A stretch of 64,000 nt of DNA from Actinomycetota bacterium (GCA_028698215.1 JAQVDY010000006.1:2705-66704), one strand, 5' to 3'. Shown: positions 1 to 18,922, counted from the first letter of the stretch. The notes: a model not told the origin generated them from the letters alone. Numbers and translations are program-made.

Positions 1-2261
1 TCCAGGAATGATTTATCGATGGCCAGGTACCCGATCACTTCTTCATTGTTAAATACTGCTTCCGCTGAATCATCATCTTCAGTTAAGGTAAAGCTGGTAC
101 CGCTGCTGGAAGCAAGCGACCAGCCGGTAGGTATGTTAATCTCACTTATGCTAAACTGGGTACCCAGCGGCACTTCAAAGGGGCCGTAGCTGGCAGAAGT
201 GCTGCCGGCAGGTATGGTAACTCCCATTGGCTCAGATATGCCGGCTGCATCCGGAGTTATGTCAAAGTAGAAAGTAATATCTGCGTCCAATGCCTGGCCT
301 ATGTTTTTAGTTATGGTTACCTGGCCTTTAGCCGTGTTGGGGGTATTGGTAAAACTAACCTGGGAAGTAGAGCCTACGGTAACCGAAGCACTCTTTCCGG
401 CAGGAAGGCTAAAAGATGCACTGGCATCTCCCCCGGTTTCAGTAACCAGGTAATCGCCGGCGGGAAGGTTTCCCACTGTGGTTGACTGGTTGTAAGGGCC
501 GCCTTCCGGAACGGTGATAGATACGGTAGTGCTATAGGGGTCAGCTACATTCTGCTGGACAATGGTAAAGTTAAAAGTACCATACAGGCCATCGGTGGTA
601 GCTTTATTTATTTTTATGGAACCGTACTGGTCATTGGGGGTATTGGTAAAGCTGGCAGTAGCAGTTGCCCCTGCAGTTACGGTTACTGTCTGGTCTGCCG
701 GCAGGCTAAAGGAAGCGCTTTCATTGGTGGACCCTACCTCTTTTACGGTGTAGCTGCCCGGCTCCAGGTCAGATACAGTGGCAGAGCCGCTGTAGTTTCC
801 GCCGCCGCCGGTAATGGTAATAGAGAGCTGATCTCCTACCTTGTTTCCATTTCCATCCAATATTTCAAACAAAAAGGTTCCGGTTAAGCCTCCGGTAGTA
901 GTTTTATTAATCTTGATAGCACCCTTCTGGCTTTCCTTGGTGTTGTTAAACACTGCAGTGGCAGTACTGCTGTCACTGCTTAAGGTAAAGCTGGTACCGC
1001 TGCTGGAAGCAAGCGACCAGCCGGTAGGTATGTTAATCTCACTTATGCTAAACTGGGTACCCAGCGGCACTTCAAAGGGGCCGTAGCTGGCAGAAGTGCT
1101 GCCGGCAGGTATGGTAACTCCCATTGGCTCAGATATGCCGGCTGCATCCGGAGTTATGTCAAAGTAGAAAGTAATATCTGCGTCCAATGCCTGGCCTATG
1201 TTTTTAGTTATGGTTACCTGGCCTTTAGCCGTGTTGGGGGTATTGGTAAAACTAACCTGGGAAGTAGAGCCTACGGTAACCGAAGCACTCTTTCCGGCAG
1301 GAAGGCTAAAAGATGCACTGGCATCTCCCCCGGTTTCAGTAACCAGGTAATCGCCGGCGGGAAGGTTTCCCACTGTGGTTGACTGGTTGTAAGGGCCGCC
1401 TTCCGGAACGGTGATAGATACGGTAGTGCTATAGGGGTCAGCTACATTCTGCTGGACAATGGTAAAGTTAAAAGTACCATACAGGCCATCGGTGGTAGCT
1501 TTATTTATTTTTATGGAACCGTACTGGCTTACAGGATTATTAACAATATTATGGCCCAGGGCAACTTCTGAACCATCTGCACTGGTAGTTACTTCATACC
1601 AGCCGTTATCTGCAGAATATCCGGCGGGAGCACTTATCTCATGAACAAAATAAGTAGTATTTATATTCAGGTTACCAAAAATGACCTTACCCCCGCTGGA
1701 GGTTTTCCTGTCTATCTCTGAACCTGTATCATTATTAATGCTATATAAACCTATAACTGCTCCGTCCAGAGCATTTCCCAGATTATCCACCTTGTTTACC
1801 TTAATAGAAGCCTGGGGGGGTTGGGTGCAATCAAGGTAAAAGGTTATATGGCTTATTTCCTGGATCATATTGGAGTCGCCCAGCCTGGTAACCGTAGCGC
1901 TGCTGGTACCTACCCCGCTAACCTGGTAAGCCAGTTCGGTAGGAGCAGGATCACTGCCCTCTTTTACCCAGTAGGTGACACTGCCGTCATCATGCTGGAT
2001 ATAACCATATTTACCATTACCTAAACTGGGGCTGTCTCCCCATTTACCGGCTTTTATCAGTACACCAGTTATGATGCATCCGTCTGCGGTATGGGTAACT
2101 CCATCCTTGACACCACCGTCATACTTAATCCAGCCATCACCTTCTTCGATGCCGGAATCAGCAAAAACGGTATTGATTGGTACTAGTAGCATCAACAGCC
2201 CTACCACCACCATAAAGGATGCCAATTTGGTTCCTATTGAATATTTGCTTCTCTTAAACAT
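1..2261 (-). CDS. Large secreted repetitive surface protein (adhesin/pilin-like). It has an N-terminal signal peptide and SpaA/Cna-B-type prealbumin-fold domains followed by Ig-like repeat units. It is partial, and its C-terminal part runs off the window start.
   Basis: Minus-strand ATG at 2261 with a GGGGGG RBS 4 nt upstream. The translation MFKRSKYSIGTKLASFMVVVGLLMLLVPINTVFA is a signal peptide. The motif TTYFVHEISAPAGY is typical of SpaA-like isopeptide/prealbumin-fold domains. It is followed by ~299-aa units (KINKATTDGLYGTFNF...) repeated almost identically, with no stop down to position 1. It is absent from the ORF track only because it leaves the window. Confidence 0.6.
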   Translation of the reverse strand, partial: MFKRSKYSIGTKLASFMVVVGLLMLLVPINTVFADSGIEEGDGWIKYDGGVKDGVTHTADGCIITGVLIKAGKWGDSPSLGNGKYGYIQHDDGSVTYWVKEGSDPAPTELAYQVSGVGTSSATVTRLGDSNMIQEISHITFYLDCTQPPQASIKVNKVDNLGNALDGAVIGLYSINNDTGSEIDRKTSSGGKVIFGNLNINTTYFVHEISAPAGYSADNGWYEVTTSADGSEVALGHNIVNNPVSQYGSIKINKATTDGLYGTFNFTIVQQNVADPYSTTVSITVPEGGPYNQSTTVGNLPAGDYLVTETGGDASASFSLPAGKSASVTVGSTSQVSFTNTPNTAKGQVTITKNIGQALDADITFYFDITPDAAGISEPMGVTIPAGSTSASYGPFEVPLGTQFSISEINIPTGWSLASSSGTSFTLSSDSSTATAVFNNTKESQKGAIKINKTTTGGLTGTFLFEILDGNGNKVGDQLSITITGGGGNYSGSATVSDLEPGSYTVKEVGSTNESASFSLPADQTVTVTAGATATASFTNTPNDQYGSIKINKATTDGLYGTFNFTIVQQNVADPYSTTVSITVPEGGPYNQSTTVGNLPAGDYLVTETGGDASASFSLPAGKSASVTVGSTSQVSFTNTPNTAKGQVTITKNIGQALDADITFYFDITPDAAGISEPMGVTIPAGSTSASYGPFEVPLGTQFSISEINIPTGWSLASSSGTSFTLTEDDDSAEAVFNNEEVIGYLAIDKSFL

Positions 2262-2291
2262 GTGACCCCCCATTTATGTTAAGTTCTTAAA

Positions 2292-2689: not shown

Positions 2690-2790
2690 CAAAAAAAACC
2701 GGCCTAATTAGCCGGTTACGCTACTTGCTCCACTTTTCCCAAGCGTCCAGGTTGAGGAAAAGCTTCAAAGCATCTAATTAATTTATGTTT
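2690..2790 (-). ncRNA. Candidate small RNA or cis element, copy B. It is a paralog of 2292-2400 and has its own intrinsic terminator.
   Basis: Same core as copy A. The hairpin AACCGGCC-TAAT-TAGCCGGTT (2697-2717) is followed on the minus strand by a U-run (plus-strand A-run 2689-2696). Confidence 0.3.
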
Positions 2791-3134: not shown

Positions 3135-3956
3135 CTACTGTAGCACAAACCACTTATCATAAATTTCAGCAGCAGTTCCATCCTGGGCCATCTGGGCGAT
3201 AGCCTGGTTTATATCTTCTAATATTTGCGAATTCTTGCCCATGGCAATTACAAAATCACGCTTGGATTTAATGGTGTCCAATACCCGGTAAAGCATTCCA
3301 TCCTGGTTTAGAATATTAATGGCAATAGGCTTTGAAATTAAAACCCCCTCTATATTCTTAGCCTTAAGATCGTCCATCATAACCTTTATATCCTCATAAT
3401 CGGCTATCCTGTACCTGGCCAATACCTCTTCGGACAAGCCCTCCTTGGCGGTCCTTAATATGCCCACATCCTTGCTGGCCATATCTTCCTTAATCATTAT
3501 CTGGGTATCACTTAAACTTATCAGTAAATACTCCAAAGTATAATAGGCATCAGAATAATCAACTGCATTCTTTTTATCCTCCAAAATTGGCAGGGCAGAA
3601 ATAGCCAGGTCAATGTTGCCCGCATCCAGCTCCTGGTAAAGGGAATCATAGGCTACGGATTTTATCTCTATCTCTTTTCCCAGCCTGTTTCCGATTTCGG
3701 TAATGACATCTATGTCAAAACCTTCAGCCTTGCCCTCCTGGTTTAAAAACTCAAAAGGGGGATAGGAGGTATCTGTGCCCACTGTAAGCTTGGGAACCTT
3801 GCTTAAATCACGGCCGGTCCCATTGGCAGACATGCTGCTGGCCAGCTCGGTTACCCGGCAGCTTACTACCGGTGACATTAGTACTATTAAAACCACTAAT
3901 GCTGCGGACAGCACCAGTGCTGAAATTACTCTTTTACTCCATTTTATCTTAATCAT
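3135..3956 (-). CDS. Periplasmic/lipid-anchored substrate-binding protein of the polar amino acid type (SBP family 3). No cognate ABC permease or ATPase genes are adjacent.
   Basis: There is an N-terminal hydrophobic anchor. The motifs GTDTSYPPFEF and AEGFDIDV fit the PBPb fold pattern. Size is 273 aa. Confidence 0.6.
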   Translation of the reverse strand: MIKIKWSKRVISALVLSAALVVLIVLMSPVVSCRVTELASSMSANGTGRDLSKVPKLTVGTDTSYPPFEFLNQEGKAEGFDIDVITEIGNRLGKEIEIKSVAYDSLYQELDAGNIDLAISALPILEDKKNAVDYSDAYYTLEYLLISLSDTQIMIKEDMASKDVGILRTAKEGLSEEVLARYRIADYEDIKVMMDDLKAKNIEGVLISKPIAINILNQDGMLYRVLDTIKSKRDFVIAMGKNSQILEDINQAIAQMAQDGTAAEIYDKWFVLQ

Positions 3957-3966
3957 TACTGGTCCT

Positions 3967-5808
3967 TTAAAAAATCTCTTCCGGTTCAGGAAAACCTAAA
4001 CTATTTACAAAATATTCATTGAACTTGGGATGGGTGGTTAATTCCAAATAATTAATTTTCTTAGCCAGGTTTTCTGCTTTCTTCCTGTATTTGGATGAAA
4101 CCAAAACCTGCTTGGCCCCTACTCCGGCAGCATTACCAACCTGTACAATCTTTCCTAGATCCACCTGGGGAAACATGCCTATGTTTATGACATTCTTGGG
4201 GTCTATATAGGAGCCGAAGGCTCCGGCAATTATAATTTTGTCTATCTGGGTAAAGTCTATCTGGGCATTATCTAGCAGTATATCTATGCCCGTTCTCATG
4301 GCTCCCTTGGCCAGCTGGATCTCCACGATATCCTTCTGCCCGATAGAAACATAGTCCCGGCCTGGCTTGCCGGACAATAGATACTGCATCCCTTCCTGCT
4401 CATCTTTAAAAATACAATTAGAATCCTGGACAAACTTGCCCCTGGTATCTATAAGGTTAGCCTTTCTTAATTCGGCTATACAGTCCAGTATGCCAGAACC
4501 ACAAATACCGGAAGGCTCCTTGTCGCCTATGGTCTGAATGGAAGGCTGGCAGGTGGCTGAGTCTATGGCCACCCTTTCAATGGCCCCGGGAGCAGCCCTC
4601 ATCCCGTAACGGATATGGGCTCCCTCAAAAGCAGGCCCGGAAGCAGTGGATACACTGGTAATTCCACTGCTGGTCTTTAAGGCAATCTCGGTATTGGTGC
4701 CAATATCAATACCTATAATATTTCCCTTAAGCTGGTCAATATCTGCAGCCAAAACCATAGCCAGGTGGTCAGAACCCACAAACCCGGCAATAGGTGGAAG
4801 CAGGTAGACATATCCTCCGGGGGCAATATTTATTCCCAGCTGCCAAGCCTTAACGCTTAAAGCCTGTCCGGTTAAAGACACAAAGGGAGAAAGGCTTAGC
4901 TGCCTTACCGGCAAGCCCAGGAACAGGTGGTGCATGGCGGTATTGGCTACCAAGGTTATCTCATTTATCTGTTTCCGGTCAATCTGGTGATCCTGGCAAA
5001 GCTTTCCTATAGCCTGGTCAATACCTGAAGTAACCACTTCCTGTATTTTTTTTAGGCTGTCCCCACCTGCCAGGGCAAAATTAAGCCTGGACATCACGTC
5101 TTCACCGTAAGATATCTGGGGATTCATTATACCCCTGCTGCCCAAGGTAGCTCCGGTAGACAGGTCCACTAAAAGAGCCGCAATCTTGGTAGTGCCTAAA
5201 TCTATGGCCACGCCATAATTATGGCCAGCCTGATTTCCGCCCTCGACATTAATGATTTCTGTGCCCCGCAAGCTAACCGTTACCTTCCACCCGTTATCCC
5301 TTAAGGTTTGGGGCAGCAGCGAAAGGGCTTTAAAGTCAATATTATCAGCCTTAACCTTATAATTTTTTTCCAGCAGGCCAGCTATGCGGTCAAAGTCAGG
5401 GGTAACATCTTCCAGGGTAGCCGGGCTAACCTCCACCCAGTATTTTTGGCATACTGGATCAGGCTCTACCTCCCTGCCGGTACCGGAAACCTGTAGTTTC
5501 TGCTCTTCGCTTAAAGAAGAGGCAGGTATGTAGATATTAAGGTCCCGGTCAAATACCTGCTGGCAGGCCAGCCGTACCCCCTTGCTTATCTCTTCCGGTA
5601 AAAGAACCTTTTTTTCCTGGCCGCTTACCGCAGTATCAGCAGCATCCAGAACTATTATCCTGCACTTGCCGCAGGTTCCCTTGCCTCCGCAGACAGACTT
5701 AATGCCAATCCCTGCTTCTAATAAAGCTTCCAAGCCATTGGCAGGCCGGTCCAAGTAGAGCCTTTTTCCTATAGGCTCCACCTCTATTCTGATTTTATTT
5801 TTGGCCAT
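3967..5808 (-). CDS. RACo-type protein: an N-terminal plant-type 2Fe-2S ferredoxin domain fused to an ASKHA-fold ATPase (DUF4445-like). It is a homolog of the reductive activator of corrinoid Fe-S proteins.
   Basis: The motif CGGKGTCGKC...LACQ is a 2Fe-2S signature. DLGTTKIA and GIDIGTNTEIAL are ASKHA phosphate-1 and phosphate-2 motifs. The 613-aa length matches RACo architecture. Confidence 0.6.
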   Translation of the reverse strand: MAKNKIRIEVEPIGKRLYLDRPANGLEALLEAGIGIKSVCGGKGTCGKCRIIVLDAADTAVSGQEKKVLLPEEISKGVRLACQQVFDRDLNIYIPASSLSEEQKLQVSGTGREVEPDPVCQKYWVEVSPATLEDVTPDFDRIAGLLEKNYKVKADNIDFKALSLLPQTLRDNGWKVTVSLRGTEIINVEGGNQAGHNYGVAIDLGTTKIAALLVDLSTGATLGSRGIMNPQISYGEDVMSRLNFALAGGDSLKKIQEVVTSGIDQAIGKLCQDHQIDRKQINEITLVANTAMHHLFLGLPVRQLSLSPFVSLTGQALSVKAWQLGINIAPGGYVYLLPPIAGFVGSDHLAMVLAADIDQLKGNIIGIDIGTNTEIALKTSSGITSVSTASGPAFEGAHIRYGMRAAPGAIERVAIDSATCQPSIQTIGDKEPSGICGSGILDCIAELRKANLIDTRGKFVQDSNCIFKDEQEGMQYLLSGKPGRDYVSIGQKDIVEIQLAKGAMRTGIDILLDNAQIDFTQIDKIIIAGAFGSYIDPKNVINIGMFPQVDLGKIVQVGNAAGVGAKQVLVSSKYRKKAENLAKKINYLELTTHPKFNEYFVNSLGFPEPEEIF

Positions 5809-6226
5809 GCTTCTCAGATTCTTCCTTTATAAACTGTTCGAACTCAGGCCCAGCTTTCATCAGGTTGGCTAAGTCTTCATCCAGGTTGTCCGGTTTTATC
5901 TTAGCTATCCAGCCTTCATCATAAGGAGACTCATTGATGAGCTCCGGTTCATCTTCCAAATCTTCATTTACCTCTACTATTTCTCCGGTAACCGGGGCAT
6001 AAAGCTTGCCTACCCATTTGCCTGATTCCAGGCTGGAAAAAGGCTTGCTCTGCTCTACCTTGGCTCCGGCCAGGGGCAGCTCTATATAGACTATATCACC
6101 AGCCAGTTTCTGGAAGAAATCAGTAGCTCCCATAATTACCATGCCGTCGTCATCTGCCTTGGCCCAGAAATGGTTTTTTTCATAATAAAGGTCATCTAAA
6201 AATTCATATCCTGCTATTTCCATCAT
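5795..6226 (-). CDS. Glycine-cleavage H-protein-like lipoyl-carrier protein.
   Basis: The segment SLESGKWVGKLYAPVTGEIVEVNEDL aligns with the H-protein lipoyl site ESVKAASD(V)YAPVSGEVVEVNE, including the lipoyl-lysine. Size is 143 aa. Confidence 0.6.
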   Translation of the reverse strand: MMEIAGYEFLDDLYYEKNHFWAKADDDGMVIMGATDFFQKLAGDIVYIELPLAGAKVEQSKPFSSLESGKWVGKLYAPVTGEIVEVNEDLEDEPELINESPYDEGWIAKIKPDNLDEDLANLMKAGPEFEQFIKEESEKHGQK

Positions 6227-6232: not shown

Positions 6233-7423
6233 CTATTTTTTGCTTTCCAAACTATTTAATACCAGTTCGGCTATATCCCAGACCTTAATTTTTTTATTAA
6301 GGTCTTTTTTCTTTTTCTTCAATGCGGTAGATATGGTTCGCTCACACTGCTGGCAGCCCGATATTACCACGTCCGCATCCGTTTCTATTATCTCCCGGGC
6401 TTTACTGCCGGCAATTTCAGCCGCCAGGTCCGCATCCAGCGATTCCAGGTTGCCGCCTCCGCCGCAGCAATTAGCCTTAGCCCTGTTTTTGGCCAGCTCT
6501 ACAAACTGCAGCCCCGGCACCGCCCCTATAACTTCCCTGGGTTCCTCAAATACCCCCGAGTTTCTGCCCAGGTCACAGGGGTCATGATAAGTAACTTTAA
6601 TGTCCATGGGACCCAGGTCCAGCCTGCCCTCTTTTATCAGGGACAGCAGGTACTGGGATATGTGCATAACCTCAAAATCCATATCCTCTCCTGCCAGCTG
6701 GCTGTATTCATGCTTCCAGGTATGGTAACAGGAAGGGCAGGAAGTTACAAGAATTTTTGCTCCTTTTTGCTTAACCGTGGCTATGTTAAACCGGGCCAGC
6801 TCCCTGGCTTCCTCTTCCATCCCCGCTGAAAGCAGGGGAAATCCGCAGCACCATTCCTGTTCTCCCAGCAAGGTAAAATCCACTTCAGCCTGCTGGAAAA
6901 TCTGGATAATGGACCGGGGAATGGAAAAGGTGCGGGGTGAAAAAGAAGAGACACAGCCCACAAAGTAGACCACTTCCGCCTTATCCTTTAGAAATTGCTC
7001 CGGCTCTGCCCCCGGAAGCTGCTTTACCCAGTCAGCCCGCCCTTCATTGGTATCAAAGGTCACATTATGGCCTTCTGCTATACGTTTTTTTAACATATCC
7101 AGAACTTCCGGATAACGGTGGCTGTCCACCAGGTCCAGCCGGGCTGCTTTAAATATTTCCTTTAAATCTACCCCGCTGGGGCATTCATTGGCACAATAAT
7201 TACACAGGGTACAGGTATAAATCTTTTTTGAAATTTTATCCGTATAGCCAATAGTCCCTTTTTCTACCGCTTCCAATAAGCTTAATTTCCCCCGGGGAGT
7301 AACACTTTCATCCAAAGTCTGCTTGTAAATAGGACAAACTGCCAGACAGTTGCCGCACCTGCTGCAGTTAAACAGGGCGTCGGACAGGTTAGCTATATTT
7401 ATTTTTGATTCTTTTTTTACCAT
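6233..7423 (-). CDS. Fe-S oxidoreductase subunit with two 4Fe-4S ferredoxin motifs and two CCG (HdrD/GlcF/LutA-type) domains. It is a likely partner of the adjacent FAD lactate dehydrogenase.
   Basis: The motifs are CSRCGNCLAVCP and CTLCNYCANECP, followed by CCGFP and CCGGGG CCG motifs. Confidence 0.65.
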   Translation of the reverse strand: MVKKESKINIANLSDALFNCSRCGNCLAVCPIYKQTLDESVTPRGKLSLLEAVEKGTIGYTDKISKKIYTCTLCNYCANECPSGVDLKEIFKAARLDLVDSHRYPEVLDMLKKRIAEGHNVTFDTNEGRADWVKQLPGAEPEQFLKDKAEVVYFVGCVSSFSPRTFSIPRSIIQIFQQAEVDFTLLGEQEWCCGFPLLSAGMEEEARELARFNIATVKQKGAKILVTSCPSCYHTWKHEYSQLAGEDMDFEVMHISQYLLSLIKEGRLDLGPMDIKVTYHDPCDLGRNSGVFEEPREVIGAVPGLQFVELAKNRAKANCCGGGGNLESLDADLAAEIAGSKAREIIETDADVVISGCQQCERTISTALKKKKKDLNKKIKVWDIAELVLNSLESKK

Positions 7424-7445
7424 ATCCTTACCTTATGTTTATAGG

Positions 7446-8825
7446 TTAACTGTCAAAATACATTTTGCCTGGATTCAAGATATTATCAGGGTCAAACGCT
7501 TTTTTAACCCTTTTCATCAGGCCGAAAACATCATCGCTTATTTCCATCTTAAGGTACTTGGCTTTGCTGATGCCGATGCCATGCTCACCGGACAGGGTCC
7601 CTCCCAGGGCAATAGTGGCTTCAAATATCTCTTCAATGACCTTTTCCACTTTTTCCTGCTCCTCCGGTATCCTCAGATCGGTAAGCAGGGTGGGATGCAG
7701 GTTTCCATCCCCGGCATGGCCAAAAGTGCCAATCATCATATCATATTTCTGGGCTATGGCATTAACTGCCTCTACCAGTTCCACTATCCTGCTGCGGGGA
7801 ATGGTGGCATCTTCCAATATAGTAGATGGTTTAACCCTGGCCAGCGAAGACAAGGCCGCCCTGCGCGCCGCCCATATGGTATCCCTTTCCTGGGCCGATG
7901 TAGCTACCTGGCAGGATGATGCATTATTTTTCTGGCAGACCTTCTTTACCGTTTCTGCTTCCGCTTCCACCGCTCCCTGCTGCCCGTCTACCTCTATCAG
8001 CAGCATGGCCCCTATACTCCTGTCCAGGCCTATGCCCAGATAGTCTTCAATGGCATTTATGGTCACATTATCCACAATTTCCAAGGTGGCGGTGATAATT
8101 CCCTCCGCCACTATATCCCTTACTGTCTGGGCCGCATCAGTAAGCTGGCCAAACAAAGCCAGCAGGCTGGCCCTGGCCGGAGGTACCGGAAGCAGTTTTA
8201 AGGTAGCCCTGGTAACAATACCCAAGGTACCTTCTGAACCAACTATAAGGTCCTTTAAATTATAGCCGGTCACCCCTTTGACCGTCCTGGTTCCCAGGTT
8301 AACTATCTCCCCGGTAGGAAGCACCACTTCCATGCTGCTGACATAATCCTTGGTTACCCCATACTTCAGGCCTCTCAGCCCCCCGGCATTTTCAGCAATA
8401 TTTCCTCCAATGGTAGAGCAATTCATACTCCCCGGATCGGGAGGATAAAAAAGATTATACTTTCTGGCAGCCAGGTCGACCTCTTCAGTAATGGCCCCTG
8501 CCTCTGCCTCTATTAGCAGGTCCACCGGGTTGACCTCAAAAATACGGTTCATGTTAACCGTGGCCAGTATCAGTCCCCCTTTTACCGGCAGGCAGCCGCC
8601 GCTTAACCCGGTAGCTGCTCCCCGGGGAGTAACCGGGATGCCCTCCTGGTAGGCCAGCTTCATTACCTGGCTGACCTGTTTTGCATTCTGGGGTCTTACC
8701 ACCGCCTCCGGAAGGTACTCCAGGCGGGTGGAATCATAGCTAAAAGCAATCATATCCTCCGGATCAGTAAACACAAAATCCTGGCCGACAATTTCCTGTA
8801 ATTGTTGCAGATACTTTTTTTTCAT
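7446..8825 (-). CDS. FAD-linked oxidase of the GlcD / D-lactate dehydrogenase (Dld-II/LdhA) type.
   Basis: There is an N-terminal FAD_binding_4 pattern (PRGAATGLSGG) and a C-terminal FAD-oxidase_C pattern (GHAGDGNLH). Size is 459 aa. Confidence 0.7.
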   Translation of the reverse strand: MKKKYLQQLQEIVGQDFVFTDPEDMIAFSYDSTRLEYLPEAVVRPQNAKQVSQVMKLAYQEGIPVTPRGAATGLSGGCLPVKGGLILATVNMNRIFEVNPVDLLIEAEAGAITEEVDLAARKYNLFYPPDPGSMNCSTIGGNIAENAGGLRGLKYGVTKDYVSSMEVVLPTGEIVNLGTRTVKGVTGYNLKDLIVGSEGTLGIVTRATLKLLPVPPARASLLALFGQLTDAAQTVRDIVAEGIITATLEIVDNVTINAIEDYLGIGLDRSIGAMLLIEVDGQQGAVEAEAETVKKVCQKNNASSCQVATSAQERDTIWAARRAALSSLARVKPSTILEDATIPRSRIVELVEAVNAIAQKYDMMIGTFGHAGDGNLHPTLLTDLRIPEEQEKVEKVIEEIFEATIALGGTLSGEHGIGISKAKYLKMEISDDVFGLMKRVKKAFDPDNILNPGKMYFDS

Positions 8826-8880
8826 GTTATTTACCTGTTATTGTTGATAAAAAAAGTATTGGGTAGGTGGCGATGGGAAA

Positions 8881-10161
8881 CTATTTTTTTAGAAATGGCA
8901 TAACATAAGGCCCTTCTGGAATTACGGTAACTTTTGCATCTTTCCCATACCGGGCAAACCCAATATCTAAAGCTTCCGAAACCGAATTAACCAATTTAAG
9001 GGTATCTTCAGGTATACCCTGGCCGCAGTCCGTCAGGCAATGGCTGTACAAATATATCTCCGCTTTTTTCCTGGCCTTTGCCAGCTCTTCCAGCTCCCAC
9101 TGGTCTATTTTAAAATAGTCGGTATTGCAGATCCTGTCCATGAACCGGCCTAAATCCTTTTCTGATTTTAGGAGCTGTGTAAATTCCTGGCTGCCTATTT
9201 CCTGGATGCACTGGGCAGCAATAATTATCATGCCGTCCTGTTTTACCGCAGGCAGGCAGCCTACCATGCCTTTTACAGCCTGATAGACATTTACATCCAG
9301 GGGCAGGCCGCCTCCGGTAGTAATAACTATATCTGCCTCCTGGCTAATTTCTGCCCTGCTGGACTTAAGGCAGAACTCTGCCCCCTGCCGGTGGGCCGTT
9401 ACCAGGTCACCGCAGAATATGCCGGTAACCTGCTTTTCCTTGTTAATAGTCACATTTACTATAAAATCTACCCCTGCTTTCTTTGCTATTTCAGTAGCCT
9501 CTTCATGGAAGGGATTGCCGTCCAGCACCCCGGTGGTGGAATGGCTGGACTCCAGTATGGCCGGGCCATGAAAGTATTTAAACATATCCATATAGCTAAT
9601 GCCGGGGCATATGGATTTTCTTCCTCCAGAAAAACCGGCCATAAAATGGGGTTCGATCAAGCCGGTTAAAATTTTAAAGTCAGCTTTTAGGTAATTCTTA
9701 TTTAAAATGACGGGAGTGCCCTGGGAAGTCTGCCCAATATCCTGGCAAGACTGACGGTCCCGGGCATCATGATTTATAATGCGGTAGGTTTCAGCTATGT
9801 TTTTGCCTACCAGCTGTTCTAACTCTTTACCTACATTGGGCCGGTGCAGCCCGGTAGCAATGAGTATGGTAATGTTTTCCCGGGCTATGCCATAGCTTTC
9901 CAGCTCCGCCAGAAGCACCTCTAAAATCAACCGGGTAGGCACTGCCCTGGTGGAATCTGAAATAATGATACAAACATCTTTTTTGCCTGCCACCAGTTTC
10001 TCCAGCGGCTGGCTGTCAATGGGGTTTTTAATACTTTCAGCGATTTTCTGCTCAGGATGGTCCACCGGTTTAGTGGGCCTGGTTTCCAGCACATACAGCA
10101 GGTTCCTTTCCGGAACCTCTACCTCTAGTTTGGTATTGCCGTAATCTAGTTTTATTCCCAT
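8881..10161 (-). CDS. larA: Nickel-pincer-nucleotide-dependent lactate racemase family protein (LarA / DUF2088).
   Basis: A 426-aa protein with LarA-like N- and C-terminal domain patterns, and the conserved His/Lys-rich segments typical of LarA. larBCE are not in the window. Confidence 0.55.
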   Translation of the reverse strand: MGIKLDYGNTKLEVEVPERNLLYVLETRPTKPVDHPEQKIAESIKNPIDSQPLEKLVAGKKDVCIIISDSTRAVPTRLILEVLLAELESYGIARENITILIATGLHRPNVGKELEQLVGKNIAETYRIINHDARDRQSCQDIGQTSQGTPVILNKNYLKADFKILTGLIEPHFMAGFSGGRKSICPGISYMDMFKYFHGPAILESSHSTTGVLDGNPFHEEATEIAKKAGVDFIVNVTINKEKQVTGIFCGDLVTAHRQGAEFCLKSSRAEISQEADIVITTGGGLPLDVNVYQAVKGMVGCLPAVKQDGMIIIAAQCIQEIGSQEFTQLLKSEKDLGRFMDRICNTDYFKIDQWELEELAKARKKAEIYLYSHCLTDCGQGIPEDTLKLVNSVSEALDIGFARYGKDAKVTVIPEGPYVMPFLKK

Positions 10162-10164: not shown

Positions 10165-10713
10165 TTACATTATTGCCCTATACAAATCCTTATGTGGTGA
10201 TGCTATTACCCTGTAATCTACTAAAAAATCTTTTTCCCGGGCATAAGATATGGCTGCCGAAATTGATTCATTAACTGAAGATACATCACCATTGATTATG
10301 ACCATATTTTTGCCGCCAATAGCCCTGGCGATCCTTATCTCTACCAGGTCTACCGATGTAGCTTTAACCGCAGCATCCGCAGCCACGATAATAGAAGGCG
10401 AAGTAAGGGTTTCTACCACGCCTATGGACTTCCATTCCTTTACCTCCGAAGCCTGGTTGATAGCAGAAAACAGCTCGGGGTAAACATTGGATACAGCCCC
10501 ATAATCTATGATAAAGTTTTCATTTTCATCTACTACTACCTGCAGGGAATTGGATACAGCGCTAACGCTGCCCGCAAATACAATATAATATTTTCCCGGA
10601 CAGATGGTTTTAGCATCCAATATCCTTACATCTGAGGCCTTGACCAGAGTATCTATGGCCCCAATTCCAATAGCAATACTGCGAAACTCTACAATTCCAA
10701 TAGACTTTTCCAT
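10165..10713 (-). CDS. BMC-T shell protein (tandem BMC domains, PduT-like). It carries the conserved pore cysteine for a 4Fe-4S cluster.
   Basis: There are two BMC domains. The motif KTICPGKYYIV matches PduT KTICPGKF around Cys38. Confidence 0.7.
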   Translation of the reverse strand: MEKSIGIVEFRSIAIGIGAIDTLVKASDVRILDAKTICPGKYYIVFAGSVSAVSNSLQVVVDENENFIIDYGAVSNVYPELFSAINQASEVKEWKSIGVVETLTSPSIIVAADAAVKATSVDLVEIRIARAIGGKNMVIINGDVSSVNESISAAISYAREKDFLVDYRVIASPHKDLYRAIM

Positions 10714-10732: not shown

Positions 10733-11104
10733 CTATTTTTTGTTTTTCTTCTTTCCGCCGCTTACCTTGGCCGGTTTTTCCTGTTTACGGCTTCGTGACC
10801 GGGGAAAAGTGCCCTTGCCGTCACGAACCATCTTGCCCGATATAATTTTTTCCAAATCAGGATGAGGCCTGGGTATTATATGTACACTTATGATTTCTCC
10901 AATCCTCTTGGCTGCTGCTGAGCCTGAGTCCAAAGCAGCCTTAACTGCGCCTACATCGCCGGATATGATTACGGCAGCATAACCGCTGCCTACATAAGCC
11001 TTGGATATAAGCTTAACATTGGCCGCCTTTACCATAGCATCTGCAGCTTCGGTGGCCCCCACCAGTCCCCTGGTTTCAATAAGTCCTATTGCTTCCCCGT
11101 TCAT
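10733..11104 (-). CDS. BMC-H shell protein (PduA/EutM-like) with a ~30-aa Lys/Arg-rich C-terminal tail.
   Basis: The sequence [32 protein letters not shown]...[11 protein letters not shown] is canonical BMC-H. The tail is [28 protein letters not shown]. Confidence 0.8.
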
Positions 11105-11128: not shown

Positions 11129-12547
11129 CTATTTCACAAAGTTCATAGAGCGGTACATAGTTATTTTTCGCTGCCTGGTGAAAGTCCTGGGGGTGGTATG
11201 CCCTTCCCCGGTAGCACCAGCCAGGGTCCAGGATGTTCCGCCTGTGGCCAGGGTTCCGGCGCTTCTTTGAGAAGCCCCGTTGACAATAAAATTAGTAGTG
11301 CCGATCTTCTGGCCATAATAGGTTATACGGCTCAGGTCTTTGGAATGGACCATAGCGGTATGCCTGAAACCATGCTCTACTTCACAGGCCATATCTACTG
11401 CCTGCTCAAAGGTATCTGCAATCAATATGGGCACTATGGGCATAAGCTGCTCATGCTGTACCAGCGGATGGGAAATGGAATCTGCCACAAACACCGCCAG
11501 CTTAACCGAGTTGTCCACATTGATGCCTGCCTGCTGCAGGATTACCGGGCAATCCTTGCCCATCAATGGTTTAACTATCTCTCCATCTTTTACTACCAGA
11601 CCGGTTACCTTGGCAGCCTGATCCGGGTTTAGTACCACTGTCTTGTTTTTAGCAATGGCAGAAAGGAACCTGTCAGCCACGCTTCTCAGTACAATAATTA
11701 CCTTCTCGTCATTACACAATATATTGTTGTCAAAAGCAGCTCCAAAGGCGATTTCGCTGGCTGCCAGTTCGATATCTGCGGTATCGTCTACCACTGCCGG
11801 CGGATTGCCGGGTCCGGCGCCAATAGCCTTCTTGCCGCTCTTCATAGCCATATCCACTATCTGGGGCCCCCCGGTAGCACAAATTAAATTTATATCCGGG
11901 CTTTTAAACACGGCAGCTGCATTCTGCATCTTGGCTTCCCTGGTAGCGGTAATAAGGTTGGGAGGCCCGCCGGCATCCACTATAGCCTTATGAACTACCT
12001 TAAAGGATTCCAGGGTACACTTATTAGCTGCCGGATGAGGCAGGAATACCACTGAGTTTCCTGCGGAAACCATGATTATAGTATTATTGATAACCATGGG
12101 AGTAGGGTTGGTCATAGGAGTTATAGCCCCTATCACTCCCCATGGAGCCATCTCGAAAGTCTGGGTTCCGTCATCACTGCTAAAAGTGGTAACTTCCAGC
12201 TCTTCGGGACCCACTGTCCAATCGATAGCCACTCTTACCTTTTCTTTTTTATCCTCAAAGTTGCCCATCTTGGTTTCATCTACACTTAACCTGGCAAAGT
12301 TTTCTATATGCTTTCTGCATTCCCTGCGGATTGAATCCACTATCTTGTAGCGGATATCTTTACCCATAGCGGATAGTTGCTGTTGAGCTACTTTTGCTGC
12401 CTTTATGGCATCCTCAATATTATCAAACAAACCATCAGCAGAGGTAACCACAGATGAAGCCTTAAGGCTGGTAGAATTTTGGCTAACCGAAAGGTTATCC
12501 ACCACACTTCTTACTATTCTCTCTACGGTTTTTTCATCTATAGCCAC
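11129..12547 (-). CDS. CoA-acylating aldehyde dehydrogenase (PduP/EutE-like) with an N-terminal encapsulation peptide.
   Basis: It is ALDH-superfamily throughout, with the catalytic Cys region ILCNDEKV. The N-terminal amphipathic helix EKTVERIVRSVVDNL, followed by a Ser/Thr linker, resembles the PduP encapsulation peptide. Confidence 0.75.
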   Translation of the reverse strand: MAIDEKTVERIVRSVVDNLSVSQNSTSLKASSVVTSADGLFDNIEDAIKAAKVAQQQLSAMGKDIRYKIVDSIRRECRKHIENFARLSVDETKMGNFEDKKEKVRVAIDWTVGPEELEVTTFSSDDGTQTFEMAPWGVIGAITPMTNPTPMVINNTIIMVSAGNSVVFLPHPAANKCTLESFKVVHKAIVDAGGPPNLITATREAKMQNAAAVFKSPDINLICATGGPQIVDMAMKSGKKAIGAGPGNPPAVVDDTADIELAASEIAFGAAFDNNILCNDEKVIIVLRSVADRFLSAIAKNKTVVLNPDQAAKVTGLVVKDGEIVKPLMGKDCPVILQQAGINVDNSVKLAVFVADSISHPLVQHEQLMPIVPILIADTFEQAVDMACEVEHGFRHTAMVHSKDLSRITYYGQKIGTTNFIVNGASQRSAGTLATGGTSWTLAGATGEGHTTPRTFTRQRKITMYRSMNFVK

Positions 12548-12581: not shown

Positions 12582-13583
12582 TCAATTGATCTTAATACCT
12601 CTTTCTTTTGCTTCGTCTCTAGCCAGCGGGGTTAATATAACATTGGGGCCCAAAGTTATGCCGGTATCCCTGTACTGGTCCAGGTCATCTGCAGTAATTA
12701 CCAGTTTTCTGCCATTGCTGCTTTCAGGAGCCGATGGCACTTCTATTGTCTGGGCCTGGTCATTAGCAGAGCTTGAATTGATGCTTTTCAGTACATTGAT
12801 ATCAGTGATCTCTCCTGCATAACTGCCGTCAGGAATCTCCGGGGGAGTCCCATTGGCATTAGCCATCTGCGGCGCAATAGGGGCAATACAGGAAGCATCA
12901 ACTACTTCTACCAAGCTGCCGTTAACAATATCAGCCGCATTGGCATCATCAGTATCCACATGCATCTCAGTTTTAAAATCAGGAGCAACCCTTACCTGCA
13001 CATTATTAAAGGTAAGGCCTTTTGGCCCGGGTACCCTTACATCAACTTCATCATTGTCTTTTAGGCCAAAGTAGTTGGCATCCTCGGTACACATATGTAT
13101 GTGACGGTTTGCCCTTATGACCCCTTCTTTTAGATAAACCACGCCTTTAGGTCCCACAATCACCGCGGAGGAAGTGCCCTCCAGCTTGCCGCTGGGCTTA
13201 ACCGGGGCGTCTACCCCCAATATGATGCAGTCAGTTTTAGCCAACTCCACCTGTGACCTGTCCCTTAAAGGCCCCAGGATCCTCACATTCTGCAGGGCAT
13301 TAAGTTTAGGTCCTACCACTGTGACTGTTTCTTTGGCTGCAAATCCGGGGTTATAAAGTTCCCTTAAGGGAGTAAGCTTGTAGCCCTTGCCAAACAATGT
13401 ATCCAAATCTTCCTGGCAAAGGTGGACATGCCTTACTGATACCCCGCATACTATTTTCCTGTTACCTGTTTTTACCTGTCCCATATCCTGGCTAGCAACC
13501 GCCTTCTGAGGTACTTTTGGCTCGGACTGCAGTTTTTCCATTACGCTAATAACCACATCCCGAATTAGTTTTTCGGTATCCAC
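12582..13583 (-). CDS. PduL-type phosphotransacylase with an N-terminal encapsulation peptide and an uncharacterised ~110-aa C-terminal extension.
   Basis: There are two PduL repeats with the motifs RHVH and RHIHM. The N-terminal helix is EKLIRDVVISVMEKL. The C-terminal segment RKLVITADDLDQYRDTGITLGPNVILTPLARDEAKERGI is not part of canonical PduL. Confidence 0.7.
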   Translation of the reverse strand: MDTEKLIRDVVISVMEKLQSEPKVPQKAVASQDMGQVKTGNRKIVCGVSVRHVHLCQEDLDTLFGKGYKLTPLRELYNPGFAAKETVTVVGPKLNALQNVRILGPLRDRSQVELAKTDCIILGVDAPVKPSGKLEGTSSAVIVGPKGVVYLKEGVIRANRHIHMCTEDANYFGLKDNDEVDVRVPGPKGLTFNNVQVRVAPDFKTEMHVDTDDANAADIVNGSLVEVVDASCIAPIAPQMANANGTPPEIPDGSYAGEITDINVLKSINSSSANDQAQTIEVPSAPESSNGRKLVITADDLDQYRDTGITLGPNVILTPLARDEAKERGIKIN

Positions 13584-13625: not shown

Positions 13626-13901
13626 TTATTCACTAGGTAAAATCAGGTCCAGATCCTGATGAGGTCTAGGAATAACGTGAACTGAGAGAAGTTCTCCTAC
13701 CCTTTTTGCGGCAGCAGCACCAGCGTCAACAGCTGCCTTTACTGCGCCTACGTCGCCTTTAACTATAACTGTTACCAAGCCGCCGCCGATTCTTTCCTGG
13801 CCCATCAAGGTAACATTTGCAGCTTTAACCATTGCGTCAGCTGCTTCTACTGATCCTACTAGTCCTCTGGTTTCGATTAAACCAATTGCTTCTCCTGCCA
13901 T
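13626..13901 (-). CDS. BMC-H shell protein (PduA/EutM-like).
   Basis: The sequence [32 protein letters not shown]... is canonical BMC-H. Size is 91 aa. Confidence 0.85.
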
Positions 13902-13974: not shown

Positions 13975-14769
13975 TTATTTATTATTATCCAATATATTAG
14001 ACACTATTTTAGTTATCAGCCTGGACAGCTCATCCTTGGTCATAGTGATGGTGTCCCCGCTTCTGCCAGCCCCGGTCTCCGGGCCCAGCTGCTCTGAATT
14101 TATCCTGCATCCTGCATAATGCTGGTCCATTCCCCATTCCTGCCTGAGCTTTAGCATCTTTTCCACATTTTCCTTATCTATTAAGTTAATCTGTCCCAAC
14201 TGCCTGGCCACCAGGTAAATCTTGGCAAACAGCTCCATGCTCTCCATCCGGTAATAAGCCTGGTATACATCTGAGCCTATAGACAGAGCCCCATGGTTTT
14301 CCAGTAAAAAAGCATTATGATGGGGCAGGTACTCCCGGATATTATTAGGTATCTCTTCCGTGGAAGGGGTTCCATATTTGGTGAGAGGTATGGATCCCAA
14401 AGCTATAACCACTTCCGGAATAACACACTGGTCCAAAGCCATCCCTGCACAGGCAAAACCAGTAGCTGTAGGGGGATGGGCATGTACCACTGACCCCACA
14501 TCCGGCCGGTTTTTATAAACATCCAGATGCATCTTGATTTCTGAAGAGGGCTCCAGCTCCCCTTCCAGCTTACGTCCTTCCCCATCTACCTTAATCAGCT
14601 GGTCGCTGGTAAGATAGCCCTTACTTCTTCCGGTAGGGGTGCATAGGTACAGGTTATTATCCATCTTAACCGATACATTGCCGTCATTGGCAGCTACCCA
14701 GCCCTGGGCATATACCCTATGGCAGATCTCTATAATGTCTTTCCTGTGCTCGCTCTCGCTTTTAGTCAT
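13975..14769 (-). CDS. Class II aldolase/adducin-family enzyme (fuculose/rhamnulose-phosphate-aldolase-like) with a C-terminal encapsulation peptide.
   Basis: The segment VVHAHPPTATGF has the class II aldolase zinc-binding H-x-H motif. A ~45-aa C-terminal extension ends in the amphipathic helix TKDELSRLITKIVSNIL. Confidence 0.65.
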   Translation of the reverse strand: MTKSESEHRKDIIEICHRVYAQGWVAANDGNVSVKMDNNLYLCTPTGRSKGYLTSDQLIKVDGEGRKLEGELEPSSEIKMHLDVYKNRPDVGSVVHAHPPTATGFACAGMALDQCVIPEVVIALGSIPLTKYGTPSTEEIPNNIREYLPHHNAFLLENHGALSIGSDVYQAYYRMESMELFAKIYLVARQLGQINLIDKENVEKMLKLRQEWGMDQHYAGCRINSEQLGPETGAGRSGDTITMTKDELSRLITKIVSNILDNNK

Positions 14770-14792: not shown

Positions 14793-15368
14793 TTAACATC
14801 TACACATGGCTGACGTAAGCCACCTTAATACCTGGGGATCTGGATTAGCTATGACCTTCTGGCCGATTAAAGCTCCCTTTTCTGCCAGGTACTCTGAGGC
14901 CACCCTTACTGCTTCCTGCACTGCAGCCAGCTGGCCGGTTATTACAAAAAAGCTGTTAACCCCGCATCCCCGGGCCAGCCTGAAATCCATAAACTCCACT
15001 TCCGCCGTGTCCACTGTAATATCTGCAGCATTGATAAGATAAGCCATCTGCATTGATTCCACTATCCCTATCGCTCCCAGCACCGCCGGGCTGATCTTAC
15101 CGCTTATGGCCCCTATGACCTTGGCATCTATACCCCCTATAATCTCGGTGCTGTACAGATGCTTGCCCCCCATATTTACCGCTACCTCCACAGAAGTATC
15201 CAGGGCATCCATCTCTCCCTCTACCAGGGTAAGGTATTTCCCCGGACAAAGGGAAGTGGCTACCAGCAGGTTAACCTGGGAAGCCTTTATCAGGCTGTCG
15301 GTAACCTCTACGCCCCTGGCTATGCTTTTAAACTCCATTACTGCTATATTTCCGATATTGTCTTTCAT
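14793..15368 (-). CDS. BMC-T shell protein (tandem BMC domains, PduT-like) with a conserved pore cysteine.
   Basis: There are two BMC domains. The motif TSLCPGKYLTL corresponds to the PduT Cys38 region. Confidence 0.7.
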   Translation of the reverse strand: MKDNIGNIAVMEFKSIARGVEVTDSLIKASQVNLLVATSLCPGKYLTLVEGEMDALDTSVEVAVNMGGKHLYSTEIIGGIDAKVIGAISGKISPAVLGAIGIVESMQMAYLINAADITVDTAEVEFMDFRLARGCGVNSFFVITGQLAAVQEAVRVASEYLAEKGALIGQKVIANPDPQVLRWLTSAMCRC

Positions 15369-16700: not shown

Positions 16701-16967
16701 TTACTCCAAATCTATTTTGTCAACTTTTGCCACTATGGCAGCATCGACATTTTTTTTACGGGTAATTTCAGTTCTTTTTGCCGTACTGCCCGTCACAATT
16801 AATCCAATTTCCCCCTCACCCAGGCCTACGGTGTCTACCGCCACAAAATATTCCGGCCTGCGGCTCAAATCTGTTTCCAGGCACTGTACCAGAAGTATCT
16901 TAAAACCTTCCAGGGTAGGGTCCTTTATAGTGGACGTAACTTTTCCTATTACTTTTACCAATCTCAT
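16701..16967 (-). CDS. BMC-P vertex pentamer protein (EutN/PduN/CcmL family), paralog type A.
   Basis: An 88-aa protein with the EutN_CcmL pattern (MRLVKVIGKV...VAVDTVGLGEGE...IVAKVD). Confidence 0.75.
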   Translation of the reverse strand: MRLVKVIGKVTSTIKDPTLEGFKILLVQCLETDLSRRPEYFVAVDTVGLGEGEIGLIVTGSTAKRTEITRKKNVDAAIVAKVDKIDLE

Positions 16968-16973: not shown

Positions 16974-17264
16974 TCATCCGTTAATCACTTTGCCACCCTC
17001 AAGGTCAATACTGTCTACCAGCCCTACTATGCAGCCCCTTATGGGTATACTCCTGATACCCATAACCTTGCAGATAGTAACCCCGTTTTCAATCCAGTAG
17101 ACCAGGCTTCCTGAAGCAGCATTAAGGTAATCAGCCACAATTATCTTCCTGCCCCGGGTCCTGCCGTCAGGATCCAATGGCTCCAGCACCAAAAGCTTTA
17201 TTCCCTGCAGCCTTTCGTGCTTACTTGTGGACACTACATTGCCTATTACCTTACCCAGCCTCAT
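16974..17264 (-). CDS. BMC-P vertex pentamer protein, paralog type B.
   Basis: A 96-aa protein with the EutN_CcmL pattern (MRLGKVIGNVVST...). Confidence 0.7.
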   Translation of the reverse strand: MRLGKVIGNVVSTSKHERLQGIKLLVLEPLDPDGRTRGRKIIVADYLNAASGSLVYWIENGVTICKVMGIRSIPIRGCIVGLVDSIDLEGGKVING

Positions 17265-18913: not shown

Positions 18914-18922
18914 AATTATCCG

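Follow-up and report, generated by a model that had tools for sequence, protein, structure and literature searches.

A LarA racemase and a FAD/Fe-S dehydrogenase pair joined to an aldolase-type microcompartment operon of Actinomycetota: a proposed lactate exit module

Results

The racemase and dehydrogenase genes continue a microcompartment operon

The DNA analysed here is a 64-kb stretch (the window) from an uncultured Actinomycetota bacterium (GCA_028698215.1), and the locus described below is known from its sequence alone. A gene for a LarA-type racemase, a gene for a GlcD-like FAD-dependent dehydrogenase and a gene for an Fe-S subunit with CCG domains directly follow the last shell gene of a bacterial microcompartment (BMC) operon. 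Read from its 5′ end, the locus encodes a DeoR-family regulator, two BMC-P proteins, a PduS/RnfC-like protein, a PduT-like BMC-T protein, a class II aldolase, a BMC-H protein, a PduL-type phosphotransacylase (PTAC), a CoA-acylating aldehyde dehydrogenase (AldDH), a further BMC-H protein and a further PduT-like BMC-T protein, LarA, the GlcD-like protein, the CCG subunit, the lipoyl carrier protein GcvH, a RACo-type activase and a family-3 solute-binding lipoprotein (Table 1). We propose, with a probability of roughly 0.6, that LarA, the GlcD-like protein and the CCG subunit act in the cytosol as the lactate exit module of a PVM-like metabolosome of the aldolase type.

The genes for LarA, the GlcD-like protein, the CCG subunit, GcvH, RACo and the shell proteins all lie on the minus strand. 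Distances read from the sequence were 3 nt between the shell gene at 10165-10713 and larA, 55 nt between larA and the GlcD-like gene, and 22 nt between the latter and the CCG gene. These values match the first-pass annotation, whose identities and coordinates for the three genes were likewise reproduced by Pfam and by the positions of the open reading frames (ORFs). No intergenic terminator-like site was found on the minus strand between the shell genes and position 3135; the sole convincing non-coding hairpin of this type on that strand, at 2717-2697, lies past the solute-binding protein gene and probably ends the operon. A promoter-like site was located at 18082-18054, upstream of DeoR. With promoter-like sites upstream of DeoR and no intergenic terminator before 2717-2697, co-transcription of the LarA module with the shell genes, which had been called likely, is plausible. 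The unit drawn at 6233-10161 in the first-pass annotation contained the right genes, but its 3′ limit at 6233 did not stand, as the conserved operon runs on through GcvH, RACo and the solute-binding protein.

Table 1 Features of the microcompartment locus and its surroundings, listed by position in the window.
Feature	Position	Strand	Evidence and remarks
Intrinsic-terminator-like hairpin and T-run	2697-2717	-	8-bp stem, 5 GC pairs, then TTTTTTGT
Family-3 solute-binding lipoprotein, last operon gene	3135-3956	-	Pfam SBP_bac_3 4e-33; signal/lipobox-like N-terminus
RACo-type [2Fe-2S]/ASKHA ATPase (reductive activator of corrinoid proteins)	3967-5808	-	Pfam Fer2, RACo_linker, Raco_middle, RACo_C_ter
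GcvH, lipoyl carrier protein	5795-6226	-	Pfam GCV_H 1e-42; passes both NCBIfam GcvH cutoffs
Fe-S subunit, 2x[4Fe-4S] and two CCG domains (HdrD/GlcF/Dld-IIB-like), 396 aa	6233-7423	-	Pfam CCG x2, Fer4_8
GlcD/LctD-like FAD-dependent D-2-hydroxyacid dehydrogenase (putative), 459 aa	7446-8825	-	Pfam FAD_binding_4, FAD-oxidase_C
LarA, nickel-pincer-nucleotide dependent 2-hydroxyacid (lactate) racemase (predicted), 426 aa	8881-10161	-	Pfam Lar_N, LarA_C
PduT-like tandem BMC-T, last shell gene	10165-10713	-	Pfam BMC x2; pore cysteine (KTICPGKY)
BMC-H shell protein	10733-11104	-	Pfam BMC; lysine-rich C-terminal tail
CoA-acylating aldehyde dehydrogenase	11129-12547	-	Pfam Aldedh; NCBIfam PRK15398 522 bits > cutoff 403
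PduL-type phosphotransacylase (PTAC)	12582-13583	-	Pfam PTAC 8e-71; NCBIfam PRK15070 above cutoff
BMC-H shell protein	13626-13901	-	Pfam BMC; 87-99% identical across related loci
Class II (FucA-family) aldolase, signature enzyme	13975-14769	-	Pfam Aldolase_II 3e-48
Second PduT-like BMC-T shell protein	14793-15368	-	Pfam BMC x2; SLCPGKY
PduS/RnfC-like flavin/Fe-S protein	15368-16699	-	Pfam Complex1_51K, SLBB, Fer4_17, RnfC_N
BMC-P (EutN/CcmL) vertex protein	16701-16967	-	Pfam EutN_CcmL; kept in related loci
BMC-P (EutN/CcmL) vertex protein	16974-17264	-	Pfam EutN_CcmL; kept in related loci
DeoR-family regulator, head of the conserved block	17266-18030	-	Pfam HTH_DeoR, DeoRC
Extra BMC-P pair	18644-19198	-	Pfam; this organism only
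FolD	19235-20158	-	Pfam; this organism only
Formate-tetrahydrofolate ligase (FTHFS)	20189-21910	-	Pfam; this organism only

The gene order is conserved in Actinomycetota

In a collection holding one genome per species, 15 Actinomycetota species with LarA proteins of 59-73% identity showed the same order, which starts at DeoR, or at the edge of the contig, and takes in the shell and enzyme genes up to BMC-T, followed by LarA, GlcD, CCG, GcvH, RACo and the solute-binding protein. More loci came from metagenome contigs and from look-ups of exact protein sequences. A PduT-like gene stood directly upstream of LarA in 32 of the 36 ortholog loci with enough upstream sequence, down to 59% identity, and the adjacency of LarA and shell gene is therefore not due to chance; GlcD directly followed LarA in 26/35 ortholog loci with enough downstream sequence. 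The flanks varied, with acetate kinase (adjoining DeoR in loci L053 and L006), BlaI/M56, HAD/URO-D or transposase genes upstream of DeoR, and Pterin_bind (L053 and L054 only), sortase or surface protein genes past the solute-binding protein. Because these flanks differ from genome to genome, the 17-gene block is the conserved unit.

Variant loci exchange the electron partner and keep LarA

Some loci depart from this order. BMC-T, LarA, RACo and the solute-binding protein were present in L051 and L052, where GlcD, CCG and GcvH are absent and a sugar ABC transporter with a xylose-isomerase-like TIM-barrel gene precedes the aldolase. These two loci had brought up GlcD-CCG-GcvH as a single insertable module, which is ruled out by L071, where GcvH is kept together with a 39-aa remnant of CCG (2455-2571) between LarA and GcvH. 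L071 also keeps LarA and RACo, and the remnant indicates that GlcD and CCG were deleted secondarily. In L010, a 3.5-kb insert between LarA and GlcD includes no metabolic gene; it consists of an assembly gap, an AAA-ATPase gene and small ORFs that resemble toxin-antitoxin genes.

A rearranged locus was found on a 95-kb bioreactor contig (L115) of a Mahella-like member of the Bacillota; LarA of this contig shares 72% identity with a protein from Mahella sp. The genes of the locus are ordered DeoR, aldolase, LarA, AldDH, acetate kinase, two BMC-H, a FBP-aldolase-like protein, BMC-H, PTAC, BMC-P, BMC-H, PduS-like, PduT-like, EtfB, EtfA and GlcD-like. This is a homologous microcompartment locus in a different order, with Etf standing in for the CCG subunit. 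A decayed version was seen in a Mahella sp. assembly (L137, 11349-13414), in which AldDH and acetate kinase/PduS are fragmented and LarA, EtfA and the FAD dehydrogenase are kept. In L125 (10001-11276), LarA is broken over three reading frames.

Other relatives of LarA occur outside microcompartment loci. The 64% identical proteins of L062 and L063, which have no shell genes nearby, are encoded directly after EtfB, EtfA and a LctD-like FAD enzyme, in an operon that adjoins genes for PTA, acetate kinase and methylmalonyl-CoA mutase. In L062 (116-11244), whose LarA belongs to the Actinomycetota clade, MeaB, methylmalonyl-CoA mutase, a B12-binding subunit and PTA precede EtfB, EtfA, the LctD-like gene and LarA, and a convergent acetate kinase gene follows; this context suggests that the relative converts lactate to propionate and acetate. 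Two LarA proteins with 53-57% identity to the Mahella type lie in deoxy-sugar settings outside microcompartments: one comes last in a row of genes for a GH106 alpha-L-rhamnosidase, a 914-aa fused GlcD-GlcD protein and a CCG subunit (L138, 2562-11284), the other stands between DeoR and an FGGY kinase, with a TIM-barrel isomerase-like gene and a sugar ABC transporter ahead of DeoR (L139, 4144-12793). No fucose or rhamnose genes were found beside the 44-48% identical LarA genes of Poribacteria (L028) and Isosphaeraceae (L038), whose neighbours are unrelated housekeeping and regulatory genes.

Relatives of this kind could also mean that LarA, GlcD and CCG are a general module for environmental DL-lactate, which shares an operon or a neighbourhood with the compartment and receives no metabolite from it. 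Related LarA proteins do belong to stand-alone lactate operons without shell genes (L062/L063, L138, L110), a shell gene of any kind was present in just 2 of the 95 loci with a LarA below 57% identity, and LarA beside GlcD-type (COG0277) and Fe-S (COG0247) oxidoreductases is a generic, recurrent context that has been noted before (PMC7583248). We nevertheless consider this explanation unlikely, given that the locus has no lactate permease, that LarA and the shell gene are 3 nt apart and adjacent across most orthologs, and that in L115 LarA sits between aldolase and AldDH in a rearranged locus that again includes a FAD lactate dehydrogenase. For the lactate exit module that we favour, the exchange between lineages is informative: CCG and Etf are swapped while LarA and the aldolase compartment stay, which speaks for lactate oxidation as the common function and against a property of CCG.

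LarA retains the catalytic, cofactor- and lactate-binding residues

Pfam assigned Lar_N (PF09861, 2.6e-67) and LarA_C (PF21113, 6.3e-30) to the window protein, a two-domain fold that aligned over its full length to solved LarA structures. The closest of these was the broad-spectrum LarA of Isosphaera pallida, LarA(Ip) (PDB 9eid; 3e-107, 42% identity), whose structure with D-lactate defines the cofactor, catalytic and lactate-binding residues (PMC11851776). Aligned to it, the cofactor-tethering K182 and the nickel-ligating H198 of the window protein correspond to K183 and H199, and the catalytic H106 and H172 to H107 and H173; the carboxylate-binding R72 is kept, as are Y293, Q294 and K297, which bind the carboxylate and the 2-hydroxyl. 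All eight residues, among them those for the nickel-pincer nucleotide (NPN) that the first-pass annotation had singled out for checking, were conserved in 112-113 of 113 full-length orthologs. In the pocket, the residues after the second catalytic His are F173-M174, and the equivalent of Gln357 of LarA(Ip), position 356, is Glu in 101/113 orthologs and Gln in 12/113.

Among LarA-superfamily models, the NCBIfam LarA equivalog NF033504 scored highest, above those for malate racemase and LarAH10, and the protein is predicted to act as a lactate racemase. Since it has no terminal extension, LarA is probably cytosolic. The same LarA protein was present on several sediment metagenome contigs.

Shell proteins and lumen enzymes are of the PVM-like type

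The class II aldolase, helix-bearing AldDH and PTAC, H, T and P shell proteins and DeoR regulator that characterize PVM-like loci were all found. The shell set comprises 2 BMC-H, 2 PduT-like BMC-T and 4 BMC-P proteins, and the last shell protein, adjacent to LarA, matched PDB entries 3nwg (3e-42) and PduT 3n79 (1.6e-32). Encapsulation-peptide-like helices were recognized at the N-terminus of AldDH (MAIDEKTVERIVRSVVDNL), at the N-terminus of PTAC and at the C-terminus of the aldolase (...DELSRLITKIVSNILDNNK). None was seen on LarA or the GlcD-like enzyme, both of which align end to end with homologs from outside compartments. The PTAC also has a C-terminal extension of ~100 aa (residues ~230-333) past the PTAC domain, ending in ...LVITADDLDQYRDTGITLGPNVILTPLARDEAKERGIKIN. 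The PduS/RnfC-like protein is proposed to be the NADH-oxidising electron relay of the compartment.

The best PDB matches of the aldolase were the YgbL-type 6vop (1.4e-25) and E. coli FucA (~2e-22). With this family-level similarity it may cleave L-fuculose-1-phosphate or L-rhamnulose-1-phosphate to lactaldehyde, and the rhamnosidase and FGGY-kinase contexts of related LarA genes lend indirect support.

The dehydrogenase pair has the architecture of Dld-II

The GlcD-like protein carries FAD_binding_4 (1.2e-40) and FAD-oxidase_C (1.5e-74), and its top solved relative was LctD of the lactate dehydrogenase/Etf complex of Acetobacterium woodii (7qh2, 6e-103). The CCG domains of the Fe-S subunit were assigned by Pfam at 2e-35, and all 18 of its 18 cysteines fall in two CxxCxxCxxxC and two C...CC...CxxC motifs. 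With a FAD_binding_4/FAD-oxidase_C gene and a dicluster/CCG gene side by side, the pair shows the two-subunit architecture of Dld-II. We propose that the GlcD-like protein is the catalytic subunit of a D-lactate dehydrogenase and the CCG protein its electron-output subunit. The CCG protein scored under every NCBIfam cutoff, its top model being TfrB (197 bits vs 385).

A different assignment would start from the FAD subunit, whose top NCBIfam model was glcD (TIGR00387, 516 bits) and which matched the 'glycolate oxidase' structure 9qgz at 1.5e-98. The pair would then be a GlcDF-type glycolate dehydrogenase, the compartment would handle glycolaldehyde (from pentulose-1-phosphates) or another aldehyde, and LarA would racemise, for example, glycerate or 2-hydroxybutyrate. 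NCBIfam and PDB matches do not settle the specificity of the aldolase, the Glu at the Gln357 equivalent in most LarA orthologs could point to another substrate, and the nearby GcvH, FolD and FTHFS could process C1 units derived from glyoxylate or glycine. Several findings nonetheless make this rather improbable. Glycolate is achiral, which leaves a conserved racemase beside the dehydrogenase unexplained. The glcD score lies under its cutoff of 568, PRK11230 reached 352 bits against 897, no GlcE gene is present, and GlcF (PRK11274) gave 76 bits against a cutoff of 333, so that the GlcDEF glycolate oxidase is not matched. All lactate-contacting residues of LarA are conserved, with Gln kept at position 356 in a minority of orthologs; relatives of LarA occur in EtfBA-LctD lactate operons and beside a rhamnosidase; and FolD and FTHFS are adjacent in this organism only. 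The adjacent racemase and the replacement by Etf-LctD in L115 and L062 favour lactate over glycolate as the predicted substrate of the FAD enzyme.

Proposed lactate exit route

The steps from the aldolase to acetate kinase follow the established PVM model, which is also known from work on Planctomyces. In the lumen, cleavage of a 6-deoxy-ketose-1-phosphate of the L-fuculose-1-phosphate/L-rhamnulose-1-phosphate type by the class II aldolase would give dihydroxyacetone phosphate and L-lactaldehyde, the CoA-acylating AldDH would convert L-lactaldehyde to L-lactoyl-CoA and NADH, and the PduL-type PTAC would convert L-lactoyl-CoA to L-lactoyl-phosphate. Outside the shell, acetate kinase, which is encoded at the locus in L053, L006 and L115, would yield L-lactate and ATP; class II aldolase, DeoR regulator and acetate kinase are also those of PVM compartments for fucose and rhamnose (PMC4207490). 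LarA, likewise outside the shell, would invert L-lactate to D-lactate, and the Dld-II type FAD/Fe-S/CCG enzyme would oxidise D-lactate to pyruvate, with its Fe-S and CCG clusters handing the electrons on to some acceptor. The LarA step is modelled on LarA chemistry and the pyruvate step on the Dld-II and LctD precedents; substrates, direction of flux and encapsulated proteins are predictions throughout. The first-pass annotation had put forward this sequence from L-lactaldehyde via lactoyl-CoA, lactoyl-phosphate, L-lactate and D-lactate to pyruvate. Comparative genomics lends it support, and the coupling of the microcompartment to LarA and the D-lactate dehydrogenase was strengthened by the order conserved in many Actinomycetota metagenome-assembled genomes, by the rearranged Bacillota locus and by the relatives of LarA in an EtfBA-LctD operon, beside a GH106 rhamnosidase with GlcD/CCG and in a DeoR/FGGY-kinase sugar operon.

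No alcohol dehydrogenase or other NAD+-recycling dehydrogenase is encoded at the locus, where PduS- and PduT-like proteins are present instead. Because of this lack of an alcohol dehydrogenase, we propose that electrons leave the lumen by way of the PduS-like protein and the two Fe-S shell trimers of PduT type, as the gene content suggests. For the sugar to be oxidised completely, the electrons would go to the Wood-Ljungdahl pathway. This pathway is found in soda-lake Actinobacteria of the OPB41 class (PMC6146748), and its presence here is extrapolated from such relatives, the host being presumed to belong to that class. The sink fits the C1/corrinoid genes in and near the operon, which are those for FTHFS and FolD on its upstream side and for GcvH and RACo on its downstream side.

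The same relay would also allow the module to run in reverse as an electron sink, with electrons from PduS/PduT reaching the Fe-S/CCG subunit, pyruvate being reduced to D-lactate, and LarA equilibrating it with L-lactate. The missing alcohol dehydrogenase for NAD+ recycling, the PduS-like and two PduT-like Fe-S shell proteins, and the position of the last PduT-like gene just upstream of LarA would suit such a sink. We hold it to be very improbable, however, as characterised FAD/Fe-S lactate dehydrogenases of like architecture act in lactate oxidation (PMC4481167), it is not evident what a racemase would be for if lactate were fermented and excreted, a better sink is at hand in the Wood-Ljungdahl context (PMC6146748), and the Etf-type partner in L115 corresponds to that of the Lct system, which oxidises lactate.

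A number of observations weigh against the lactate exit route. At the level of the enzymes, LarA scored 433 bits with NF033504 and did not reach the cutoff of 460, 9qgz matched the FAD subunit nearly as well as LctD did, and sequence by itself does not assign this enzyme to lactate or glycolate. The aldolase reached no NCBIfam cutoff, and a relative of the 3-oxo-tetronate-4-phosphate decarboxylase type scored about as well as FucA. At the level of gene content, Pfam scans of nearly all ORFs of at least 100 aa bore out the earlier statement that the window has no larB, larC or larE (AIRC, DUF111 and LarE-type families), and the adjoining 10 kb of source contig also had none, only glycogen-metabolism and other unrelated genes. 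The window further has neither acetate kinase nor lactate permease. Genes for a sugar isomerase or a sugar kinase are missing from the operon, and the FGGY kinase gene lies 27 kb away, at 44952-46466. Where LarA stays without GlcD and CCG (L051/L052, L071), the dehydrogenase would have to be dispensable or encoded elsewhere. Finally, GcvH, RACo and the solute-binding protein are conserved like the LarA module and have no role in the scheme.

GcvH, RACo and the solute-binding protein

The gene for GcvH, which has the lipoyl-lysine motif ESGKW, begins 6 nt past the CCG gene, overlaps the RACo gene by 14 nt and is kept after CCG in most related loci. The RACo homolog has the complete domain set and matched PDB 3zyy over its full length (4e-106), and scored 426 bits with the AcsV model, under the cutoff of 800. 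RACo accompanies the locus throughout the Actinomycetota clade and follows LarA even without GlcD and CCG (L051/L052, L071). The gene for the exported solute-binding protein lies 10 nt past RACo and is kept there in related loci; all three genes are translationally packed behind CCG. RACo, GcvH and the solute-binding protein are not found in the Bacillota locus L115, and the window operon encodes no corrinoid protein, methyltransferase, CODH/ACS (carbon monoxide dehydrogenase/acetyl-CoA synthase), glycine-cleavage partner or ABC permease.

A link of GcvH, RACo and the solute-binding protein to the C1/acetogenic side of metabolism is probable. A bolder interpretation, which we rate as highly improbable, would unite GcvH, RACo, the PduS/PduT relay and the HdrD-like CCG subunit in a new system for routing electrons, in one of two versions. 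In the first, lipoyl-GcvH could be the dithiol/disulfide acceptor of the CCG subunit, by analogy with the lipoate-binding protein of sHdr; in the second, the RACo homolog could use ATP to (re)activate, by reduction, a metal centre other than a corrinoid, for which the Fe-S clusters of the shell or the nickel-pincer cofactor of LarA, which is sensitive to oxidation, could be candidates.

Other features of the window

The extra BMC-P pair, FolD and FTHFS occurred only on contigs of the same organism (L001/L002), and a BlaI-like repressor gene on the plus strand (18254-18640) parts this block from DeoR. Folate genes form a cluster at 49562-53375 on the minus strand (GTP cyclohydrolase I, a dihydropteroate synthase-like Pterin_bind protein and a FolB-FolK fusion), which is adjoined by an aldo/keto reductase with a C-terminal 4Fe-4S dicluster domain; the cluster fits a heavy reliance on folate-dependent C1 metabolism.

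Beyond the operon, an ORF that spans 757 codons or more and encodes a signal peptide (3-2273, minus strand) runs off the start of the window. It contains a perfect direct repeat of at least 300 nt (83-382 and 980-1279, 897-nt spacing) and probably encodes a repetitive surface protein. A promoter-like site before it, at 2446-2417, matches the sigma-70 consensus at 12 of 12 positions. In L051, a 1741-aa CLIPPER/SpaA protein is encoded after the solute-binding protein gene. ORFs 41321-42688 (455 aa) and 22069-22668 (199 aa), both on the minus strand, gave no Pfam match.

Discussion

Aldolase-type metabolosomes are among the commonest microcompartments of environmental bacteria, and the fate of their acid product is rarely considered. 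A racemase joined to a D-lactate dehydrogenase is a testable answer for two anaerobic lineages. If the proposal holds, L-lactate would be no dead end but would be inverted and oxidised to pyruvate, and the whole deoxy-sugar would become available to acetogenesis without excretion of propanediol. A large subgroup of LarA, whose best-studied member, that of Isosphaera pallida, had no assigned in vivo role, would gain a physiological role in the salvage of L-lactate derived from deoxy-sugars. The electron-transfer partner of the dehydrogenase would be exchangeable between a CCG subunit and Etf. The analysis also flags a conserved link of microcompartments to RACo and GcvH genes that the scheme leaves unexplained.

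Comparison with known systems

PVM denotes the Planctomycetes-Verrucomicrobia microcompartment, which serves L-fucose and L-rhamnose use. The locus shares with PVM and PVM-like metabolosomes (Axen 2014, Sutter 2021) the class II aldolase with a C-terminal targeting helix, AldDH, PduL-type PTAC, DeoR and several BMC-P proteins, as well as lactate as the expected acid of the oxidative branch; its close relatives also share the acetate kinase gene. It differs in coming from an anaerobic member of the Actinomycetota (with a variant in Mahella-like Bacillota), in having a PduS-like and two PduT-like BMC-T proteins and neither a lactate/malate-dehydrogenase-type enzyme nor an alcohol dehydrogenase, and in being joined to LarA and a predicted FAD D-lactate dehydrogenase.

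The lct operon, lctABCDEF(G), of Acetobacterium woodii and Eubacterium spp. combines the FAD lactate dehydrogenase LctD with EtfAB and the lactate racemase LctF (PMC9303578, PMC11725836). In both cases a GlcD-family FAD lactate dehydrogenase and a LarA racemase would share one operon of a Wood-Ljungdahl organism, the racemase supplying a stereospecific dehydrogenase, and L062 and L115 use exactly the Etf form. In the window, by contrast, an HdrD/GlcF-like Fe-S/CCG subunit replaces EtfAB, so that NAD/ferredoxin confurcation is not obvious; a lactate permease and a regulator of the LctA type are lacking, and the module is joined to a microcompartment operon.

The PF01565 + PF02913 and PF13183 + PF02754 two-subunit architecture is that of Dld-II of Shewanella oneidensis and of DVU3027/DVU3028 of Desulfovibrio vulgaris, the latter D-lactate specific by genetics and enzymology though annotated as glycolate oxidase (PMC4481167). 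The window sequences are distant from these and pass no equivalog model, and a lipoyl GcvH gene directly follows them. With the short-chain aliphatic 2-hydroxyacid racemase LarA(Ip)/Sar (PDB 9eia/9eid), the window LarA has in common all catalytic, cofactor-binding and D-lactate-binding residues, whereas its pocket has Phe173-Met174 in place of Leu-Met in LarA(Ip) and Phe-Phe in the L. plantarum enzyme, and Gln357 is mostly Glu in its group. The sHdr-LbpA clusters and the Wood-Ljungdahl clusters with gcvH and RACo/AcsV resemble the locus in a GcvH-type gene beside a CCG-domain gene and in RACo and folate C1 enzymes nearby; unlike them, the window operon has no genes for sulfur oxidation, a corrinoid protein, a methyltransferase or CODH/ACS.

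In the searchable text and supplements of the Sutter 2021 catalog, PF09861, PF02754, PF01597 and PF14574 gave no genuine match, only branch lengths and genus names, and the locus type was absent from the first of six parts of its locus-type descriptions. Within the searchable LarA literature and microcompartment catalogs, neither a racemase in a microcompartment locus nor a LarA tied to deoxy-sugar catabolism is described, in keeping with the earlier remark that a LarA route is no standard part of described loci. What was already known is the operon of LarA with LctD and the association of LarA with oxidoreductases; what is new, relative to the sources that could be searched, is their coupling to a microcompartment locus.

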